This document shows positions 863 to 59,042 of a DNA stretch of 59,174 nt, in pieces; positions within the stretch are counted from its first letter, which is position 1, and every line of letters starts with the position of its first letter. Below the pieces are notes generated by a model. It was given only the letters and a program-made list of their open reading frames with translations, did not search any database and was not told the DNA's origin. The stretch lies in contig JTLS01000007.1 of NCBI GenBank assembly GCA_000826855.1, positions 1-59,174 of the forward strand. The letters are read 5' to 3'. The stretch is from Basidioascus undulatus. Lineage: Eukaryota. A program made the position numbers and the translations under genes.

Positions 863-1527
863 ATGCGCACCACTTCCCTCCTCGCCGTTGTTGCCCTCTC
901 CGCTACCGCCATGGCTGCTGCTGCGCCTGCGGTCGGCGGCGCGTCCGGCTACGCCATGATGAGCCGCCGCGATGCCGGCGAGCTGAGAAGGCACCAGTGG
1001 AACGGGGACGACAAGAAGGTACGTTCCAGTTTAGAATTCGGCAGGTCTAGGTAAAGCAACGCTGATTGCGGTCTGAAAGCAGAAGGAGGACTACAAGAAG
1101 GATGATGATAAGAAGAAGGGGGACGACAAAAGGGAGGTCGACAAGAAGGATAACAAGCAGAAGGGGAAGAGGGACGAGGTAATGAGACTGTCACCTACTC
1201 GCAAACCTGCAACGCAGAAAGCGTCTGACAAGGCATCACTGGGCGCCTACAGAAGAAGCATGACGACAAGAAGAAGGATGGCGACAAAAAGAAGGACGAC
1301 AAGAAGAAGGACGACAAGAAGAAGGATGACAAGAAGGATGACAAGAGGGCCGAGGTCAGGACACTTTCACCTGCTCACAGATTTGCAGGTTGAAGAGCTT
1401 CTGACAGCGCTCCATTGAATCCCTACAGAAGAAACATGATGACAAGAAGAAGGATGACAAGAAGAAGGATGACAAGAAGAAGGATGACAAGAAGGACGAC
1501 AAGAAGAAGGATGAGAAAAAGCACTAA
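863..1527 (+). CDS. Secreted Lys/Asp-rich repeat precursor (Kex2-processed repeat protein-like), 4 exons
   Basis: Signal peptide MRTTSLLAVVALSATAMAAAAP. Exons 863-1018, 1083-1178, 1253-1354, 1429-1527, all phase-0 GT-AG introns. KKKDD repeats separated by RR/KR sites. TAA at 1525-1527. Confidence 0.85.
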
Positions 1528-14206: not shown

Positions 14207-16440
14207 ATGCTGTCCCTCCTGAGCCCGTCGCAAGCACTCACGCTCGCTGCCGCCTGCACAGCACTCACACTCGGTTCCCCCACGCTCGGTCTTCCGCAGT
14301 CCCGCTCTTCTTCAACCCTCTCAATCCCCCTCTCCAAGCGCGCTAACTCGTACATCGACCCGGACACAGGCTTCGTCGACCCCGCGAAGCTCACAGCCTT
14401 CCGGAGCGCGACTCGGCAGTGCGTGGTAGCTTTTCCACTCCCTCACCTTCGACTAGTGGTTACTGACTGGAGCGTGCTGGGGGGGGAAACAGTAAGGTTC
14501 GCAAGAACGCAGCGCAGTTCCAGCTCCGGACTGGGCAGGCGTTCGGGGGCGGTGTCCTCCTGCCGGAGCAGGAACTGCACTCGCGCCTGGAGCGGCGCGC
14601 GCAGGGGGACTTGGGGTTGACGTCTTATGAGACGCATTGGGGGGGGAGGATCTCGGTGATTAACTAGTGTTCTATGCGAATGGGGGAGAAGGCAGCTGAA
14701 AGAGGTCTGCGTGCCCGTGCAGATCGGCACGCCCCCCCAGGAGTTCGATATCGACTTCGATACGGGGTCGACGGACCTTTTTGTGTCCAGCCAGAGCTGC
14801 CGCTTAACCTGCTCCGAAAAGACCCTCTACGAGCCGAGCTCTTCGTGTGCCCTCCTTTTCCGTTTCCGCAAGCCGAACTCTGGCTCACAGCCTCCTTTCT
14901 CGCAGCTCGACTGCAACTAGTCTGGGTGAGCGATTTAGCCTGAGGTTTGTCTCCCAAACTCCCTCCCGTAACTCCGGCATTTAAAAAGCAAGCTTATGAA
15001 ACCGTTCGCACGCAATTGCAGTTACGGCCTCGGCGATGCCTCCGGCTTCCTCTACAGCGACACCGTCTCCGTCTCCGGCTTCTCCGTCCCGAACCAGGTC
15101 CTAGGTGCCGCAACGACGCTCGCGTCCCCGTTCCAGTCCATCACGGGCTTCGAGCCGGACGGTGCGCCCCCCCTTCTTTCTTCCTCCTTCCTCCTTCCTC
15201 CCGTTGTCCCGACGCAGGCTGGCAGTGCTGATGCGGTACGGGCGGGAGGGGAACAGGCTTGATGGGCCTCGCCTGGCCCAATCTGTCGTCATTTCCCGCT
15301 ACGCCGTGGTTCAACAACCTCATCTCCACCGGGGCGCTGGACGCAGGTGTATTCTCTTTCCGGTCCGTCGCGTCCCTCCCCCTCACCTCTCCTCGCCTTC
15401 CTCACGCCCTCCCTCCCCGCAGACTCGCAAAAGACGACTCTTCCTCGCTCCACCTCGGCGGCGCAAACGCCTCTCTCTACAGCGGCGACATAATCTACTC
15501 TCCTGTCGTTCAAGGAGGCTACTGGCTCATCTCGCAGGACGACCTCTCCGTCGGGCCCACCTCGCTCAACGCCGGGGGGTACGCAATCATGGACACGGGG
15601 ACGACGCTTATCTACGCTCCGCCGTCGATCGTCGATTCCCTGTACTCCAAGCTCGAGGGCGCCGTCAGGGCGGACTCGCTGGGAGAGGGGTACTACGTCC
15701 TCCCGTGCGAGAACTTGCCTTCGGATGTTTGTGCGTTACCCCTTCTCCCCTTCCCCGCTTCCCCATCACATCGCTCAAACCTAAACTATCTCTTAACCCG
15801 TCCCGAATTAAAATTCAGCGGTCACCTTCTCCGGCCGCTCCTTCCCCATCTCCGCCGAAAACTTCAACGCCGGCCGCGTCTCCGTCCGCCGGCGCGGGGG
15901 GAACTCGTACGGGCCCGGCCCGTCGGGGACGGACCTGAACAGCACTTCTTCCGGGGGGAAGGACGACTCCGGCATTGACTTTAGCAAGGACTACTGCCTG
16001 GGCGGGATCGTGGCGGAGGACCTCGAATTGGGCGCGGACACGTACCTTGTCGGGGACGTTTTTTTGCTGGTGCGTCCCCCGCTCCCCCTCGCACTCGCCC
16101 TTTTCTATTCCTCTCCCTTTTCCCCCATCTGCTCCATAACCTTTCGGAGCATTCCTCTGACGCGGAGAGCCCAAAACAGAATGTCTACAGCGTGTACGAC
16201 TTCGACAACTCCCGCGTCGGCTTCGCCGCGCTTGCCTCGGACGCCCAGCAGCCCAACGCTACCACGGACGGGAAGGGCTCGGGAAGCTCGGCGGACGGGA
16301 AGGGCTCGGGCAGCTCGGGCTCGGGGACGGAAGGCACTGGGTCGGGTCCCAGCTCTGCTGCTCCTTCGTTGCGCATGGGGTGGGAGGGGACGACGCTGGT
16401 CACGCTCGTGCTGTCGGCGCTGTTCTGTAGCTTCATGTAG
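14207..16440 (+). CDS. Secreted, probably GPI-anchored aspartic protease (peptidase A1)
   Basis: Signal peptide, SIPLSKR prosegment, IGTPPQEFDIDFDTGS and AIMDTGT catalytic motifs, VGDVFLLNVYSVYDFDNSRVGFA, Ser/Gly linker and hydrophobic C-terminus. Confidence 0.93.
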
Positions 16441-38440: not shown

Positions 38441-41381
38441 CTAGGCGCCATCTTTCTCTGCAAGCCACGCTTTCACGAACGCAACCATCTCGGCATGGAT
38501 CTCCTTGATGTCGCGGGGCTCCTTGCTGGGGTCCTTGAGGCCGTTCCTGCAATCCCCGGACTTCGGTCAGCCACCATGCAGACAAAAACATGGAGAGAAA
38601 ACGACGGACTCATCCCAATGATGGGTGCCGTGCGGAATGACTTTGAACGGCTCGGAGATGGTGTCGTTGCGCAGCGGCGCGCGGTCCGAGTGAGGCGTGG
38701 CGGGCTTCCAGGGGTCTGTGCGCCAATGATTCAGTAGCTGTTTCCCTGCAATGACGAGCTGGCCTGCACGGCGTACCGTCCTCTCCGTCGATAAAGGCGA
38801 GGCGCGAGTACGAGAGCGAGAAGTCGCCGAGGTCGTTCACCTGAGACGCAGGCACAAGAAGGCCATGAACACCAGCACAGCATGCTGAAAGAGGGTTGCA
38901 TAACGTACCTCGTGGACGGCCGGCCACTCGGGCAGGCAGTAGTGCTTGCCAGGCGGATAAGACTGTCCAAGGTGGGATGTCAGCAAAAAGAGCGTTGCAA
39001 TGCGCGGTCGTCACGGTGATTACCTTGTGGCAGAACTTCGAGGTCTGCGTCACATAAAGCGCTTAGCATGAGAAGAAGAATAGCTGCCTGAGTTACGCAC
39101 GTAGTCCAAAGTGAGACGCTTCGAGACGATGCGAGGATACTCTGGGTCGGGCGGTGCGCCTGGGTTTACGGGACAGATGAGCTCATGGCCTGGAAGCGGA
39201 CAACCTGAAAAATAACCTTGGAAGTAGCCCCACTGGATTGAGCCGGCGCACAGGTCAGCCGTAGTATCCGATGCAAATTAACCAATGTCCAGGGCGCACC
39301 TGCGTGCAGACCTGTAGTGTCTCCTTTCCATTAGATGCTGGTCTAGCTGAAAGCGACTGTTGTGGCTGACCTGGAAGCCCCACGCCCTGCCGTTGGAGAA
39401 GTCGTGCTCGTCCTCCACAAGGTCCTCCTCCCCGTACGTCCCGAAGCACTCCTCAACAGTCATGCCTTCCGGGCATTGCGAGACGACGTTCTGCAACCAG
39501 CGATATTATCAGCGGCCCCCTAGCAGATCGGTTAATCCACGCACGTCCTTGATGAACTTTCCGTAGTTGAGCACAAGTGCCGGGATGCGGATCAGACCAA
39601 AGGAGCGGTCTCGGTTGGGCGTGGAAAGGGCTGCGCAGAAGTCTAGGATGTGCACATATTTTGAGTACGTGCTGGCAAACGAGGAGCGAGGGACAGCAAC
39701 CAACCGTCAAAGACCGTCGAGCTGACTGCGGGGTCCCAGTTCCTGGACTGCACCCCGCCGAGTGGGGAGGAAATCACGTCCACGAAGTCGGTGTTGTGGC
39801 TGAACGATCGCGTGGCCTTAGCTGAAGCCGGTCAAGCGATGCGAGCGTGAAAGGTGCTCACGAAAGGTCGCCAAGACCGAAGACGCTCTTCAGAACTGAT
39901 GCATATGGGACAGAATCAACTCGGATGCGAGACTCTGCAGTGGGAAGCACAAGCGTGCCTTTGTGAGGGAGTGACACGGGCAGGTCAAGAACCGTGTCGA
40001 TAGCCAGGATCGCTTCCTACACTCCGTGAAGTTAGTCCTGGGAACACCTAATATGAGATAAATGTGTAGCCTCACTTGAAGGTTCGCGATGCACTCAGGG
40101 TCCTGGTTGGTCCTGCAGGATTGTCCCCCAGATTAGGTGCGGCTTCGTAAAGAACGCCAATCACACGTACCGAATGATGTCCATGTACTGCCAGTAGAGC
40201 ACGTCCGCGTGCGTCACAGCTATATTAGCAGGTCAGTCTTGTGTACCAAGCTGCAGGACCCACGGCAACCTACCGCTGGATGCGATGCCGCCGAACACGA
40301 GGTCCGGGTAGAGCTTGCGCATGTGCGCCGCACGCGCACCGGCGTAGCTGCCGCCGTAGTCTGAGCACCATGAGAGTGTCAGTCCATTGGATGAAGTGCA
40401 CAAATATCCCACTAACAGATCCACCGCGTTCCGTCGGCAGGCGAAAGCGAGTGCGAGATGCCGCGCGGCTTGACGTGCTTGATGAACTCGGCAGAGTCTT
40501 GCAGCGCCAGCGAGTTGTTCAGGAATCTGGAATTGTTGGGAGATGAATGGGCTTCGGAAGTAAACATGTGCAGCGTGAACACGCACCGGAGGTTGTCGGT
40601 CGAGAACGTCTTGACCGGAATCGACTTTCCGTAGTAGCTGTACAAGTTCAGGGTGAGCACAGGCGCCCGGTGTGACGGCGACTAGCATACCGGTGCTCCA
40701 GAACTATCGCAAGACCGCCGGTGACCTCCGCTAGGATCTTGATGATGCCATGGTCGAGGAAGGGGAGGCGGTCGGCTGCGAAGATTGAGTCTCAGAGCAG
40801 ATCTATGAACATCTAGAGAGCTGATGGGGGAGCCTCACCACCAGACGTCTCCCCTCCGTCAAGAACGAGCACTATTCCATCCGAAGCAATCCGTCAGCCT
40901 CGCCGTACAGCTTCGTGAGGTTTGCTCGCCGGGCGTGAGGCGGGTGGGCACTCACCCGGTCCTCCAGGCTTGTAATATTTGTCGTTGACCCAGTAGCGTT
41001 GTTCAAAAGTCTATAGCAGGGTTATTGATGAGTTTCTCCCCCGAACATACGATAGGTACGGATAGTCGCCACGCACAGCGTTCGAGTGCTTATCGAAGTG
41101 ATTCACCCGCTGCTCGAAGGTCTGCGCAGGATAGAGATCCTCCAAGTTCTCACCCCTCTGCCCCTGGAAGACGAGACCTGCGCGATCGAAATCTTCTTGC
41201 CTGTGTGCAATTGCAAGAAGTCGAGATATGAGCTCAAACGAAATCGAGCGATAGGCGTTTCACGAACGAACGCCTTCAGTGCTGTGCGAAGCGCGGGATG
41301 CCTTGCGAGGAACTCCCGCGATAGAAATGCGCTTGTGAGCGGGGTCAGTAGTAGGAGTGGTGCGAGTTGTTTGAGTATCAT
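38441..41381 (-). CDS. Secreted serine carboxypeptidase, peptidase S28 family
   Basis: Signal peptide, VNHFDK..TFEQRYW, LDGGE, LEHRYYGKS, TDNLRFL, nucleophile YGGSYAG, DPWK, HHWDENG. Confidence 0.93.
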
Positions 41382-41600: not shown

Positions 41601-42351
41601 ATGGCGAAAAGTATGGTGAGTGCGAGCTTGCTCTCTATATAAATAATTATTGTTTTACACGGGCGCACTCCGGGCCCACCGCAGACACCTCCTCTCACCC
41701 TCATCGTTGCCGCCACGCTCACGAATGGAATCGGCAAGGCCGCGACCCTTCCCTGGCGTTTGCCCAAGGAGATGGCGTACTTTGCCAGCGTCACGTCCGC
41801 GGCGCCTGAGGGCACGACCAACGCGCTCGTAATGGGACGCAAGGCTTGGGAGAGCATCCCGCTAAAGTTCAGGCCGCTGAAGGGGAGGCGGAACATCGTC
41901 GTGAGCAGGGACGACAAGTATGGCCTGTGCGTGTATCTCCCTCTTTGCTTTGTTTGTGTCGTGATATGCTGAAGGCAGGTGCTACAGCGGTTCAAACGCT
42001 GCCGATTCCCATCTTGCGTCTTCCATCTCTTCCGCACTCGCGCTTCTACAAGATCCCTCCCACTCTCCGCCCACCCACCGCGCTTTCTCGATCGGCGGTT
42101 CAGATATCTACCGCCACACGCTGCCTCTTGCCGAGCGCGTACTCCTCACGCGTGTGCTTAGTCCCGCCTTTGAAGACTGCGACGTCTTTTTCCCGGAGCT
42201 GGGCAGCGAGTGGATCAGGCGAAGTCATGACGAGCTGGAGAGCTGGGTCGGCTTCGAGGTGCCGCGGGGTGAGGTGGAAGAGAAGGGCGTCAAGTACGAG
42301 TTCCAGATGTGGGAGAGGGCGGCATGGGATGGAGCTCGGGAATACCATTGA
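41601..42351 (+). CDS. DFR1: Dihydrofolate reductase, 3 exons
   Basis: LIVAAT..NGIG..LPWRLPKEMAYF, VMGRKAWESIP..RPLKGRRNIVVSR, IGG, CDVFFP, YEFQMWER. Confidence 0.95.
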
Positions 42352-42866
42352 TTCTCGGGCGGCTGAACATGGCGTGCAAGATCACTTCGTCGCAGCGAGG
42401 CTCACTTGAGCTTTTATGCCGCTGGCCTCTCATAGCTCACGTCATAATGCTTGCTTATCTTAACGGCCCATCCATCCACGCTAATCAATGACACATTGCC
42501 GTACTCGGTTCGATCGCACATCGGCCATGCTCTTGCGCGTTCGCTTTGGGAATGTCCCTTTGGCTGCCGGTGTTCTCATGTCATTCGACCATTGAGTTCT
42601 TCATATAAAGCTACTGGACATTGACACCTCAAAATTTTCCACCTCACGGATAAACACACAGCCCCTACCTGCGCTGCCTCGTGCTGCACTGAGCCTCAGG
42701 ACATGACACGTTAATGAGGCAACCCTGCTGTCCTCCGTTTCGCAGCCAACTCACATCTGCACTACCTTTACGGGATAGTCCTTAGTCAAATTGATTACGA
42801 TTCCATGCGTGTCCGTCATATACAGCAAAGCAAGAGACCTGCGTCCAATGCGGAACTTCGCATGGA

Positions 42867-43444
42867 TCAGATGCCGCCGAACCCGCCCAGGCCGCCGCCG
42901 AATCCACCAAGGCCCCCATCAAAGCCTCCGCCGAAGCCACCAATGCCCCCATTGAAGCCGCCGTCGAAGCCGCCAAAGCCGCGGCCGCCGAATTGGCGCT
43001 GTGATGGAGAAAAGCCGCAGCGTGAGGCTCCGTGAAAGTCCCACACGGCCAGGAATGGAGCTTACCTTGTTATGATCCTTCTTCTTGTGATCCTTTTTCT
43101 TATGTTCTTTCTTCTTGTGCTCCTTCTTGTGTTCCTTCTTATGACACTTGTGCTCCTACATCACAAAAGAATCTGTCAGCGATCTCTTGCTGCCTCCTTC
43201 TGACAGCGCAGCTGCACGCAACCGCCTCACCTTCTTATGCTTGTGCTCCTTCTTGTGCTCCTTTTTATGCTCCTTCTTTCCGCCCCTCTTCTCAAACTCA
43301 GTTTCCGCCCAGCGCAGGCGCCTCGCCATTGGAGATGCCACGAGGCGCTAGTGCGTGCTCGCCCGTCTGGCCCTCTGCGAGCGGCGCAGCCAGCGCGAAG
43401 GTCAAGGTGGCCGCGAGGATGGTGAGAGCAATGGGCATGCGCAT
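42867..43444 (-). pseudogene. Secreted KKEH-repeat plus Gly/Phe peptide precursor with a 1-nt frameshift (pseudogene or assembly error)
   Basis: Signal MRMPIALTILAATLTFALAAP. Removing one base near 43308-43310 joins it to EFEKR-GG(KKEH)n. Exons 43231-43444, 43066-43155, 42867-42998 with phase-0 GT-AG introns. Confidence 0.75.
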
Positions 43445-45476
43445 TTTCGGTAATAGGCCTTTGTTGGAGAATGGAGGGTGGCTGTGAGTAACAAAGGACA
43501 AAGTGTTAGAGCTATGTCAACGCAAGCTTATCAGCAGCCGATAGTAACCCTGCTCTGCACAACTCTCCTGATGTCATATATAAACCAACACCCTGACCAC
43601 CGCTCGGGGTAATACTAAGGTATTCCGAGTTCTCCTTTCAGGCTTTTGGCTCCTTGAGCATGAGTTCACGGGTTCAGGTGTTGCTGCTTGCTGGACTGTC
43701 CCTGAAGTACTTTACAAACGCGTCACGTCTTCCAATGCCCGTGACCATCGCGCTTGCGCCGAAGTTCATAGGAGAAGAACCAACTCAGAATGCTATAGAA
43801 ATGGTAGCAGAAACGGAACATGGTGGTAAACAGGGCGATGGACCGGACGAAGACGCTTGGGCACAGGAGCTAATGGTTTCGATCACATCAAGACCGCTTC
43901 GGGTCAGCCACTGGGGTCAGCCACTGCATCCAACGCCTTGACCAGGGGAGACGCCAGTTGAAGAGAGACTCTATTTAAGCCGATTTTTTCACATATGCTC
44001 TATGAAGAGGTTCTGTAAGTGCATGTGCTGTCCAGCTTGGGTTCATTGCTCAGAGGGTAAGTCACTGACCTATATTTCAACCGTTCGCCCTTTAATTTGT
44101 ACAGCCTCCAGCACCCCCAAGCAAAATACGCCAGCTCGAGGGTCAGGATTGCGTCTGCCCTTTCCTGGGTCACCTTCGGTGCCAGCCGAGCGAGGAGCCC
44201 CGCAAGCGGTGAGGCCGCTGATGATAGTGACGGGCCCGCCTATCGGGTTCCCCGCCGTCGCCATCGCGACGTCGACCGCGAGAGAAAGATGAGGGCCAGG
44301 ACAGTGCAGGGTCTGATGTCCGCAGGGTCGTTGTTGGCGGCCGCACTAGTTTTGGAGACTCGTGGGACGGCGTCCGCATGGGGGCGCGGTCGACGGTGTC
44401 TTGTCAACGGGGTCGGCCATAGAGGTGGGAGGCGGGTAGAAGCGGTCGGGATGAGGTGTACGGGCCGTTCAGGCAGGCCGATGATGAGGGTGAGGGGAGT
44501 AGATACAACTGCGTGCACCTTCCACACCTCAGTACGCGTACTCGCCGGCAGTTCTAACTTCGCGGACTGGAGCTGGATAGCGTTCGTTGCGTGTATGCAT
44601 ACTACCAGCCTCACGACTTGCTTTCACACTTTCGAAGGCAACTTTACCTTCCTTCCAGAAGACCTTTGGTGCCAATATGTGGAACGCCACACATACACAT
44701 GCGCTGTGTGCTTAATCATCGAACTTCAACTGAAGGTCAAGATCATGATCCTCGACATGTCTGCCTTCTCCGCCAGCCTCTGCGTGTAAGTAGTTCACAG
44801 CTTCGCTCCGATGACTTGTGGCCTCTTTATACAAGTTTCTATGCAGTTTCCCCTCAAACAAGAAAATGGAGGGCAGGACCAAGCCGATGGAGGTCGGCAA
44901 GTACAGCCACGTCTCGCGGGGCACCGCAATGTGATATCCTATGGTACTCGTTATTTTCGGCCTTTGGCGCTACATCGTATGACATTTTCGATGTATTTGT
45001 CCTGGAATGATGTTCACTGGCAAGCTTCAGAAAAGAATGCAGTTCGAGAAACAGTTCTGCCCACTTCAGCGCAGTCGAGGCCGGTGATGCTGCGGAACGG
45101 CTCATTGTGCCTGGCGCATTGATCGCGAGGCGGAGCGACATATATGAATCTTGCAGCGATCACATCCCGCGCGCCGAGGTCCTTGGAGGTCGGCTTCGGT
45201 TCTTGCATCATGCAGATGGCTGACAGGCCGATGATTATGGGGAGCACGAGGAGCTGGACGAGCTCCATCCTCTCGACACTCATCTTCTCGTCCCCTGGCG
45301 GTGGTCCTGCCCGCGTGTAAACCACCCTTTTCGCTTGTTAAATCCTCTGTATACCGGCAACGTCAACCTAGACGTCTACCCACACTCGTTTTACAATACA
45401 CTTCGACAGTCACAGCCCCCTTCGATACCCGCATCGATACTCCGCGTTACGACCCCGGCTTCGACGCGTTTCTTCG

Positions 45477-54343: not shown

Positions 54344-55365
54344 CGTGATGGGCGTTACGGCTCGTCGAGAGAGGCGGGGCGGAGCGCGAGGCGGCTCGAT
54401 GAACATTCGGGTGAGAACCACAAACGATCAGTCGAAGGAAGAGAAAGGTAAATAATGTGAGCGATGAGCAGCATGATGGCAGTCAGTCCGTCTCATATGA
54501 GTCGGCACGTGCCGGGAGGAGAGCGGGCGGAGCGAAACGGGCAACGCCGGGGATATCAGCGAAACGACATCGAATCGGATTAGCGACGGTTGATCTACGA
54601 CCCGGAAACTTGGCCAACGTCAAGGCCATCGACCGCTTGGGCGTCATGAGTAATCCAAACTGCGGTAGGCGCAAAAGGGCCCGCCCACAGGCGAGTCTGT
54701 GAGCCAGCGAAATGAGCGTGTGAGCGTAGGGGAGCGAGGGGCAAAGCATGTGCGCGGTGGCGCGCCGGTCGAGGCGAACCGGTGGAGGGTTGAAGATCGA
54801 CTGCCTTTCGAAATGACTACATTTGATACTGACTACTGACGCCACTCTGCTAATGATCAGCGAGTTGATAGTGCGTTTCAATGCCACGGCGCATAGCGGG
54901 GCTTTTCGGGCTGTTGCTTTGGGCAGCAGGCGTGCTATGACGTTGATTGCACGGACGTACAGCCGCCTTCAACAGCCAGAAAGGGGAAAGCAGCAGTCCT
55001 GATGTCCAGGATGAGCTCGGTCGCTGCGCTTGCTCGTCTTCAATTTGCGTCAAGAGCGACGGCCGCGATAGCACGGGTAGCGGCCGTCTGATATGATAGC
55101 GCGATGAGGGAGGCCCCCTTTACTTAAGCTTCACCTCGGACATGTCCGGCTCTTCTCGCAACTGAGCCGGCAAAGTAGGTACATTCAACTTGCATCAACG
55201 CGACTTTTGGGGTCGGCATGGGCAAGGAGTGACGAGTCGTTTGGGAAAGTCATGCGCATCGCAGACGGGGCACCGGTGGCTTGTCGACAACGTGCAAGAA
55301 ACAATCATGTGCAATTCCGCCCCTCAGTGGGCAGTCCGGTTCTTCGCTGGGATCTGGCAAGAGGG

Positions 55366-55397
55366 TTTTTTTTTTTTTTTTTTATATTTTTTTTTTG
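55366..55397 (+). repeat. Poly(T) tract
   Basis: About 30 T interrupted by ATA. Confidence 0.9.
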
Positions 55398-55973
55398 GAA
55401 GGAGAGCATTCGAAGCAAGAGTGGAACAGGACAGCATAGAATGCAGAGAGACAGCAGCGAAGCACGACGTTGTCAGTCGAGCAACTCCAACTTCGCCGGT
55501 GCTCGACACACAGATATGGAATCTACAGAATGTGTGCTCAAGATAGGGCGGCAGGTGGTGCAGAGCAGAAGGCGGGTGAGAACGGAAAGAAAGTGACAGT
55601 GGCAGTACGTCGACAATGTCCAGATTGGGGCCCTAACCTGTCAATGTGAGGTGTAGTTCGCCCAGCTCCGCACTCTGCCGATAGAACGTCCACGCCCATG
55701 TTCAGTACCAGTTTGCTCAGATATGTATCCACAGGCGCAGCGAGCTACACGTGTATCGTCGTTTGACCAGAAGCACGCCGCAACAAGACTCTCAGGTGGA
55801 GTCGACGGGTGAAAGCGCACGAATACATTCAAGTTGTCCGTCAAGGGATGTATTGCCCTTCCCGTGCAATTTGCATGTACAGTGCGAACAACAGCCAACG
55901 TCGTCCTCAAGCGGCCCCTCCCTTGGAAAAGGACTAATGTCAAAGAAGTCGCCAATTCCACTGCCAGCATCAT

Positions 55974-57189: not shown

Positions 57190-58446
57190 GGCTTGCCCTG
57201 TGGTGGAGACTAGGTATAGGGGCACAGGTGGGAGAAGGAAATGGTAGGAGCAAAGGAGGACTTGCGATCGTCATCCTTGACTTCGCAGTCACCTTTGTTT
57301 AGGTATCCAAACTTCGGAGTTTAGCTTCGTTCTCAGCAAAAGCAACAGCGATGCCGTTGTGAAAGGTTGAGAACAATTGCTCGCAAATGGCTTATCCTAA
57401 TAGACAAGCTTCGAGATGGACGGAGAGCCACGGACACGGTCGGATACGCGTCGCAGCCATTCCCGGAAGACCCTGACCCTTGTGCCTGCGCTGGGATCGA
57501 ATATATCCATGTAACAGCATAAACGAAGGGCGGGGCGGTATTGCGGTATGATACTCTACAACTAATCTCTGCTCACTTATGCACCAGATCACCCGCTCCC
57601 CTCCGGAGGCTCCCTCTCCGCCGGCAATCCTCAGCACCCCCTTCGCGTTCCGCGTCAGTGTGCCATCGTCAATCGGTCAGGCTCGGCCCCCGCTCTTGTT
57701 TCACATCAGTTTAGAAGGTTAGCTGCAATTGAGAGGAACTCGGAGATAAACCTTCCGCGGTTCAATCATGTCGCAACGTCCTTCGGCAGATACGTGAGTT
57801 GTAACAACGTCCGAGATGCAGCAGGGCCACGCACCTAGGGGAATCCGAAGAAAGGGCCAGTCTCGCTCCAGCGCCCAGTGGGTGCAAACCACACCCTCCA
57901 AGCGCGTCTGAACGTTCACTTAAACCCCATACATACGAAGCGCACAGTGCTCACCAAACTACTCCTCCCACTCCCCAAGCATCCGCTCCAGCTCGGCCCT
58001 CTCCTCCCTCCGCCTCCTTGCCTCCTCCTGCGCCTGCGCCCTTCTTCTGGCACTCCACTCCCGCAAGCAGAGCCTGAGCCCAAAAGAACTCGGCCTTGAC
58101 TTGCGCAAGACGGCCAACCCGTCCGCCTGCGCGCGGTACAGCGCCTTCAGAGTAGCGGCACCCCCTCAGGCGGGAGTGCACCAAGTGGATGGACCGCTCG
58201 AGGACGGTGGTATAGCTGAAGGGCCGTGGAGCCCGAGCGATACAATTAGTGGAGACGATGGTAGGTATGGCATCGTGGTGATGAGTTGGAGAGAGGGGAA
58301 GGCAGGAAAAGCAGGAACGGATTGTATCCGCCTTCTCACCGACTCCCTATCCCCGAAAGGAACTCCTCTCCCCGAAAGGCACTCCGAAGCACGCCCTCGA
58401 TCCCACTCCAAGCTCACCTCGGCCCTCACCCATCCTTACGCTCACG

Positions 58447-59042
58447 ATGTCCACGGCCGCCTCCCTCGCCGCCAACGCCGAAAAGCCGCACGCAGAGGCG
58501 AAGCATTCTCCCTCTCCCTCCCCAGCGTACCCCTCCTTCCCCCACCAGCGCCGGTCCCCGTCCTCCGACGACTGGGACGCGGGCTCGTCCTCCTCCGAGT
58601 CGAGCGAGGACCGGCTGCTGCGGCAGGGTGCGTTTCGCCAGATCTGGGCAGAGAGAGAAGGGGAGAGAGGGGCTGATGATGTGCTGTGGTGCGTGGTGTG
58701 CGCGGGGACAGAGTGGGAAGCCTCGGTCCAGCAGCTCGAGCTTCTGTTCTCCGTCGTCGTCCTCCCGTTCTTTGGGAAGTGGCTGGGAAGGAGGTTCAGC
58801 TTCTGGTGTGCGTCTTCGCTCTTCCCGTTCCGCTTCCTTCCCTTTCCACCCTCCCTCCATAGCGCGCATCCACACGGCTTCCCTCTTCCGCCCGTCCTCC
58901 TGCCAGCCCGAGCGCACGTACGCTGACCGCAATGCTTGCAATGGGATTCGCCTACGCAGTGTACGGCCGCTGGAAGGTGTACGGCTGGACACGCCAGCTT
59001 TGGACCGGCCCGGGCGTGGGCGTGCCGGGGACGCTACTATAG
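58447..59042 (+). CDS. MIM2: Mitochondrial import protein Mim2-like, 3 exons
   Basis: Acidic N-terminus, then EWEASVQQLELLFSVVVLPFFGKWLGRRFSFW|LYGRW, matching the recalled Mim2 signature. Confidence 0.78.

Follow-up and report, generated by a model that had tools for sequence, protein, structure and literature searches.

A candidate secreted Lys/His and Gly/Phe repeat gene of Basidioascus undulatus interrupted by a frame offset

Described precursors and how the locus compares

The fungal precursors termed KEPs are recognised, in the passages of PMC6339444 that set out the rule, by a signal peptide, by KR or RR cuts that yield four or more fragments and by a motif present in three or more copies between the cuts. 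Examples are Rep1 and Rsp1 of Ustilago maydis, as covered in portions of PMC6339444 and PMC4617103, and Ustilago Hum3 is likewise among the closest described kinds by plan (PMC4617103, in part). The K2PP effectors, of which SnTox3 is one, have a signal peptide, a disordered N-terminal part that closes with KR (RR and LxxR also qualify) before the midpoint of the protein and a different C-terminal part, and they release a folded domain; the Kex2 motif given in the same passages of PMC8528282 has Arg at P1, Lys or Arg at P2, preferably an aliphatic residue at P4, and a residue other than Asp at P3. In the plant Capsella bursa-pastoris, a secreted precursor of ~120 amino acids gives rise to shepherins I and II, two linear Gly/His-rich antimicrobial peptides with a short linker between them, according to the section of PMC4695807 that deals with them.

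The locus described here is located on the minus strand at positions 42867-43444 of a 59,174-nucleotide stretch of contig JTLS01000007.1 (B. undulatus, assembly GCA_000826855.1), which was analysed as a whole and is referred to as the window. Like the KEPs, as these are described in the passages cited above, it has the layout of a small fungal secretory precursor in which KR borders segments that are hydrophilic or amphipathic and of low complexity. However, no sequence similarity to them was found, the locus has two KR sites that separate unlike fragments (Lys/His and Gly/Phe) rather than copies of one motif, and its signal-peptide-like ORF ends at a TGA (43300-43298) one frame off from the rest. 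As in the K2PP effectors, a signal peptide would precede a part that ends with KR and a different C-terminal part, with EFEKR in the first half of the product, but only in a frame-repaired model that finds no support in the DNA. Unlike the effectors in those passages of PMC8528282, both parts of the product are of low complexity; the P1 and P2 residues of the Kex2 motif are present at both KR sites, with Glu (site 1) and Asn (site 2) at P3, but P4 is Phe and His, respectively, and not aliphatic. Whereas the plant family, as outlined in that section of PMC4695807, mixes Gly and His in each peptide, the Lys/His and Gly/Phe blocks are segregated in this gene, and exon 3, without homology in the protein search, Pfam or the Atlas, is not a recognisable member of a shepherin-like glycine-rich antimicrobial family.

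The Gly/Phe part also resembles the glycine-loop segments of keratins, loricrin and the glycine-rich proteins of plants and insects, in which runs of Gly are likewise set with aromatic or aliphatic anchors; this likeness is compositional only and is to proteins of other kingdoms, and the protein search and the Atlas gave no alignment of exon 3 in its support. The Gly/aromatic antifungal NLP/CNC peptides of nematodes also start with Gln behind a KR. Histatin-type peptides are secreted, His/Lys-rich, cationic and plausibly metal-binding, and the DELD proteins of Serendipita indica are secreted and His/Ala-rich. The product of this locus has, in contrast, neither a sequence relation to these nor a DELD motif, and its His residues alternate regularly with Lys and Glu. 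The gene adds one more orphan to the wide range of small secreted repeat proteins and pro-proteins of fungi.

Structure of the locus and the frame offset

A TATA-like hexamer, predicted at 43577..43582 on the minus strand, is located ~135 nt 5' of the first ATG (43444-43442), which has an A at -3 and is followed by a second in-frame ATG. This ATG opens a 48-codon ORF (43298..43444, minus strand; frame A) with a signal-peptide-like N-terminus consisting of MR, a 15-residue uncharged hydrophobic run and then ALA|AP. The remainder of the gene is read in a second frame (frame B). The frame-B part of exon 1 (43231..43347) encodes a unique stretch, EFEKR, with the KR codons at 43290-43285, and then GG and the first (KKEH)n run at 43284-43231, within which a tandem repeat of period 12 was detected at 43240-43278. 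Intron 1 (43156..43230, 75 nt) has a GTGAGG donor and a CTGAC branch-like motif 20 nt before a TAG acceptor, motifs that resemble those of three introns in a second gene at 863-1527, and its retention would introduce an in-frame stop. Exon 2 (43066..43155) consists of 30 codons of K/H/E/D repeats (tandem periods 12 and 15) with one Cys and with NK as its last residues. It is followed by intron 2 (42999..43065, 67 nt, phase 0), which has a GTAAGC donor, CTCAC with a pyrimidine tract and a CAG acceptor, and which divides the second KR exactly between the K and R codons; the Lys/His block is thus bounded by KR on both sides. Exon 3 (42867..42998) comprises this Arg codon, a 42-residue Gly/Phe peptide and the stop TGA (42869-42867), with tandem periods of 21 and 33; the peptide starts with Gln, contains 25 G, 8 F and one Arg, and has a pI of 4.2.

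The coordinates and compositions given in a first-pass annotation of this DNA, and its junctions 43230/43156 and 43065/42999, are correct, and both introns are canonical in sequence. Its observations that the second KR is split exactly by intron 2, and that the Gly/Phe peptide has its own exon and an N-terminal Gln, can likewise be read directly from the letters. In another frame of exon 3 (42998-42919, minus strand), the GGC/TTC repeats read as an Arg/Trp/Leu-rich string. An alternative product ending in this frame was considered and rejected: the sole GT donor in the signal-like ORF could be joined to it, but is poor (GTGGCA), and the string was taken to be a by-product of repeat composition. 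A GPI-anchor signal at the C-terminus was dismissed by eye, as the tail is Gly-rich and not hydrophobic.

All five tandem repeats detected in 42500-43800 have a period divisible by three (12, 12, 15, 21 and 33). When the six frames of the window were scanned, a Gly content of at least 50% over 25 residues occurred in exon 3 alone, and stretches with at least 40% Lys were confined to this gene, the gene at 863-1527 and one short run at 55327-55416. Codon choice follows the preferred codons (AAG for 22 of the 25 Lys, GGC for 18 of the 25 Gly in exon 3 and TTC for six of its eight Phe), and synonymous variants are scattered within a constant peptide pattern. GC3 is 0.67-0.77 in the proposed frames, compared with 0.84 in a Pfam-confirmed aspartyl-protease exon, and by itself cannot separate the two strands. 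A gene on the plus strand was nevertheless rejected, since the antisense frames are Pro-rich, Ala/Glu-rich or Leu-rich, use the non-preferred CTT for Leu and lack GT..AG introns at the block borders. Only 6 of the window's 429 first-ATG ORFs (30 codons or longer) passed a crude signal-peptide rule; these six, in which true signals are counted, include the frame-A ORF, the gene at 863-1527 and the start of an S28 peptidase gene; such starts are therefore rare, and the frame-A start is unlikely to be a chance upstream ORF. From its repeat periods, composition, codons and two canonical introns at the block borders, the locus has the appearance of a gene rather than of repeats that arose by chance.

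The two frames are separated by a zone (43298..43350, minus strand) in which a +1 shift is needed, bounded by the frame-B stop TAG at 43350-43348 and the frame-A stop TGA at 43300-43298. The first-pass annotation had joined them by a one-base correction and had proposed a check for an indel at 43298-43350. That correction finds no support in the available runs. Contigs from two of these, X1 (2014, depth 18.6, 24,453 records) and X2 (2025, a different study, depth 52.8, 16,194 records), each span 42300-44000 in one piece and are identical to the window, with no other letter and no gap. A third run, X3, derives from the sample that also gave X2; its 163-base contig of depth 2.3 covers 43305-43467 gap-free with a single mismatch. 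X3 leaves the remainder of the gene uncovered and speaks neither for nor against its expression. Since the assembly may have been built from X1 or X2, these two provide one independent confirmation at most, and all runs were compared as contigs, in which rare variants are hidden. The zone contains no homopolymer of more than three bases. Candidate introns that would restore the open frame (at least 31 nt, with a length of 1 mod 3) were searched for in silico; all 138 have GC or AT donors, and none has a GT donor or a CTRAY branch motif. As no GT-AG intron restores the frame, splicing cannot bridge the +1 offset. On the basis of the X1 and X2 contigs and the lack of a long homopolymer, we conclude that the offset is present in the DNA itself and that a sequence error is unlikely. 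A product with the signal, the Lys/His block and the Gly/Phe peptide in one frame is not encoded intact by this DNA.

A downstream frame-B ATG (43327..43329, minus strand) sits within the frame-A ORF, in a weak context with C at -3, and opens a 106-codon model without a signal peptide. No second disabling change was found downstream of the offset, where both introns are canonical and the 106 codons are open, which suggests either that the frameshift is very recent or that the internal ATG is still in use. Lys and Glu codons are one step from stops, and an old pseudogene should have gained some; their absence argues weakly for a young break.

A second Lys-rich gene and the reading of the locus

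An intact four-exon gene for a 150-residue protein is located on the plus strand of the window (863-1018, 1083-1178, 1253-1354 and 1429-1527), with GT..CTGAY..CAG introns of 64, 74 and 74 nt. In its predicted product, a signal peptide is followed by a short segment containing two RR sites and then by Lys/Asp repeats of the (KKDD)n type. The last two exons, together with the introns that precede them, are duplicated, and KR occurs two residues before the end of each of the two exons that come before this pair (KRDE and KRAE). A comparison of the duplicates over codons 1-20 shows five synonymous third-position changes and one codon indel; that the substitutions are all synonymous is good evidence that the peptide of this gene is under selection. 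The gene shows that this fungus encodes predicted secreted proteins built of Lys-rich repeats, in which dibasic sites mark the borders of the units, and this plan makes a secreted reading of the frame-shifted gene more credible than a non-secreted one. The N-termini encoded by the two genes align weakly (BLOSUM62 local score 38, reached by 13 of 2000 composition-preserving shuffles, a comparison that flatters any pair of signal peptides). Frame B reads RRLRW where the gene at 863-1527 has RRHQW, at a spacing of 16 nt in the former and 15 nt in the latter, which would fit a single-base insertion near 43323-43339 but is suggestive only. Paralogy of the two genes is unproven at the DNA level, as neither the introns nor the upstream regions align convincingly.

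The best explanation, to which we give about an even chance, is that the locus is a lineage-specific gene for a secreted low-complexity protein carrying a genuine frameshift, and is thus a young pseudogene or a null allele. It would be a three-exon gene for a signal peptide, a short spacer, a polycationic Lys/His/Glu repeat block of ~47 residues and a 42-residue Gly/Phe tail of the glycine-loop type, in which a real +1 offset parts the signal peptide from everything downstream in the sequenced strain. Most ribosomes would start at the strong first ATG and halt after 48 codons, and the bipartite product would be absent or made in mere traces, through leaky scanning to the third ATG. The bipartite secreted precursor proposed by the first-pass annotation survives in part: the signal-like ORF, the KR-bounded Lys/His block and the Gly/Phe exon are all present, but the signal is out of frame and the product is not intact. 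Such a precursor would belong to an ancestor or another allele, and this genome would not make it.

In an intact ancestor or allele the protein would enter the ER, after which two fates appear about equally likely. A putative Golgi Kex2 could cut after EFEKR and NKR to release a Lys/His polycation, with a predicted charge of ~+15 at pH 7 and 11 His, and a Gly/Phe peptide with an N-terminal Gln, predicted to be neutral or slightly acidic. Alternatively, the polypeptide could remain an uncut diblock at the cell wall, as a wall or adhesive protein. Kex2 processing and the possible metal-binding, antimicrobial or coacervate roles are proposed from composition and two dipeptide motifs.

A frameshifted secreted gene is not the only way in which the locus can be read. 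The functional gene might start at 43329-43327 and encode a 106-residue, non-secreted low-complexity protein of pI 10.2, in which the Lys/His/Glu repeats would serve nuclear or nucleolar targeting and the Gly/Phe tail would self-associate, with the signal-like ORF as an overlapping upstream ORF that throttles translation. The repeats and the tail would then be comparable with nucleolar proteins that have what we take to be similar KKE/D and Gly/aromatic tails. As this reading would predict, frame B contains an ATG, is open across all three exons and carries no further damage 3' of the offset, but few ribosomes would be expected at this downstream ATG: it has C at -3 and falls within the frame-A ORF, when the first ATG, with A at -3, is backed by a second one in the same frame. 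A signal-peptide-like upstream ORF would also rarely arise by chance (6 of 429, a count that includes true signals), the signal peptide of the intact gene at 863-1527 is in frame with Lys-rich repeats, and a tail with one Arg in 42 residues is not an RGG/GAR domain, all of which makes the downstream start improbable. It is more doubtful still that there is no protein-coding gene here and that simple repeats of triplet type (AAG/GAG/CAC and GGC/TTC) are flanked by chance splice-like motifs and a chance signal-like ORF. Such repeats could keep low-complexity frames open through composition alone, and a homologue was found in none of the libraries searched; against this, two GT..CTNAC..AG introns of typical fungal length fall exactly at the block borders, every repeat period is a multiple of three, synonymous codons vary inside a constant peptide pattern, the signal-like ORF and TATA-like element are correctly placed, and selection on the peptide is evident in the parallel intact gene at 863-1527.

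The offset could also be a sequence error common to the assembly and the contigs, in which case the strain would encode an intact bipartite secreted precursor. The rest of the gene looks intact, and X1 and X2 are both possible sources of the assembled DNA and were compared as contigs rather than as raw reads. However, runs from 2014 and 2025, made in separate studies and with different depth and record number, give the same letters without a gap, X3 crosses 43305-43467 gap-free, and the zone has no homopolymer above three bases, so that an error of this kind seems very unlikely. Least probable, in our estimate, is that the DNA as it stands yields the full precursor through a programmed +1 shift of the ribosome at AAC-UGA-G (43303-43297). 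If the U of the stop codon were skipped, ..GGN would be followed by EFEKR, which is the exact frame of the Lys/His block, and +1 shifts stimulated by a stop codon exist, as in antizyme. To our knowledge the AAC-UGA-G site matches no fungal +1 heptamer, and the 98 nt downstream of the UGA fold no better than their shuffles (z = +0.96; equal or better folding in 172 of 200), which does not place the locus with the antizyme-type shifts. By a conjecture that we regard as equally far-fetched, the efficiency of such a stop-codon-stimulated shift would set the output of a self-associating or toxic diblock, and the KR cuts would yield a metal-binding polycation of histatin type together with a glycine-loop peptide capped by pGlu.

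If an intact allele of the frameshifted secreted gene exists, it would encode an unusually clean natural diblock, with a Lys/His polycation and a Gly/Phe glycine-loop segment behind a signal peptide, and would lend itself, as a compact system, to studies of fungal secreted peptides, of metal binding or of cell-surface condensation driven by cation-pi contacts. In its present form, the locus would illustrate how fast orphan low-complexity secreted genes arise and decay in fungal genomes, and a product that is gained only by 'correcting' a base needs a read check first. The intact Lys/Asp-repeat gene at 863-1527 would be the better experimental entry point to the family.

Neighbouring genes and searches for relatives

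The window has a fungal character, with short introns that carry CTRAC-type branch motifs and with coding sequence split into many short exons, and it encodes a Mim2 mitochondrial import domain (58285-58923, plus strand; PF19117, E = 9e-18). Mim2 is, as far as is known, fungus-specific. The convergent 3' neighbour of the frameshifted gene is a dihydrofolate reductase gene (41643-42348, plus strand; two Pfam-matched exons, E = 4e-18 and 1e-8), and the two stop codons are ~520 bases apart. Beyond it lies a gene for a secreted serine carboxypeptidase S28 with short exons (~39500-41381, minus strand; Pfam matches at 40236-40703 and a signal-like start at 41381), and the eukaryotic aspartyl protease exon used for the GC3 comparison is at 15232-15975 (plus strand; PF00026, E = 2e-22). 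ORF starts at 44289 and 45477 (both plus strand) also pass the crude signal-peptide rule and match no Pfam family, and these may be further orphan secreted proteins. Long ORFs in the window are mostly without a Pfam match (4 of the 114 ORFs scanned gave any row), which suggests that the coding sequence is split into short exons or is lineage-specific. There is no sign of a RiPP-type cluster around the locus; no neighbouring ORF matched a Pfam family of peptide-modifying enzymes.

Searches for homologues covered proteins, domains, RNA families and metagenomes. Against longer proteins in a search of 5.8 billion proteins, 7999 candidates were scored for the exon-3 peptide with none at E <= 0.01, and neither the signal exon (409 candidates) nor exon 1 of the gene at 863-1527 (374 candidates) gave a match at E <= 1. 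A phmmer search of the signal exon against 1.84 billion representatives returned three matches at E <= 0.001. These are long proteins (1217, 373 and 3154 aa) with 2-6 internal stretches each, and two of the three were inspected and rejected as unrelated tandem-repeat proteins. The ESM Atlas gave no usable match for exon 3 or exon 2. None of eight exon translations scored above the Pfam cut-off, the sole row being 13.1 bits against a cut-off of 27, and the exon translations of the gene at 863-1527 belong to no Pfam family either. Rfam had no match in 42300-44000. In the metagenome scans, peptide patterns gave 598 matches, none of which was confirmed, and a 26-base exact word gave none. No intact orthologue of the frameshifted gene was thus found in the protein and metagenome collections searched, in which genomic DNA of fungi is sparse. 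In the literature searched, none of the Lys/His, Lys/Asp and GFGGGLGGF strings occurs, while the GGFGGGF string occurs there in keratin, plant and insect contexts, as far as excerpts of those sources extend.

Other contigs of X1 and X2 match two parts of the Lys/His block (43075-43128 and 43240-43279) with 4-6 mismatches. At least two of them (940 bases; 8.5-21 kb) lie outside the window and carry coding sequence for Lys/His/Asp/Glu repeats. The continuations beyond the matches, inspected visually in the reading frame of this block, consisted of Lys/His/Asp/Glu-rich codons without a stop. Further members of this Lys/His/Asp/Glu-repeat family probably exist in the genome, and the matches hint that the family is multi-copy. 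Two very short matching contigs were present at much higher depth.
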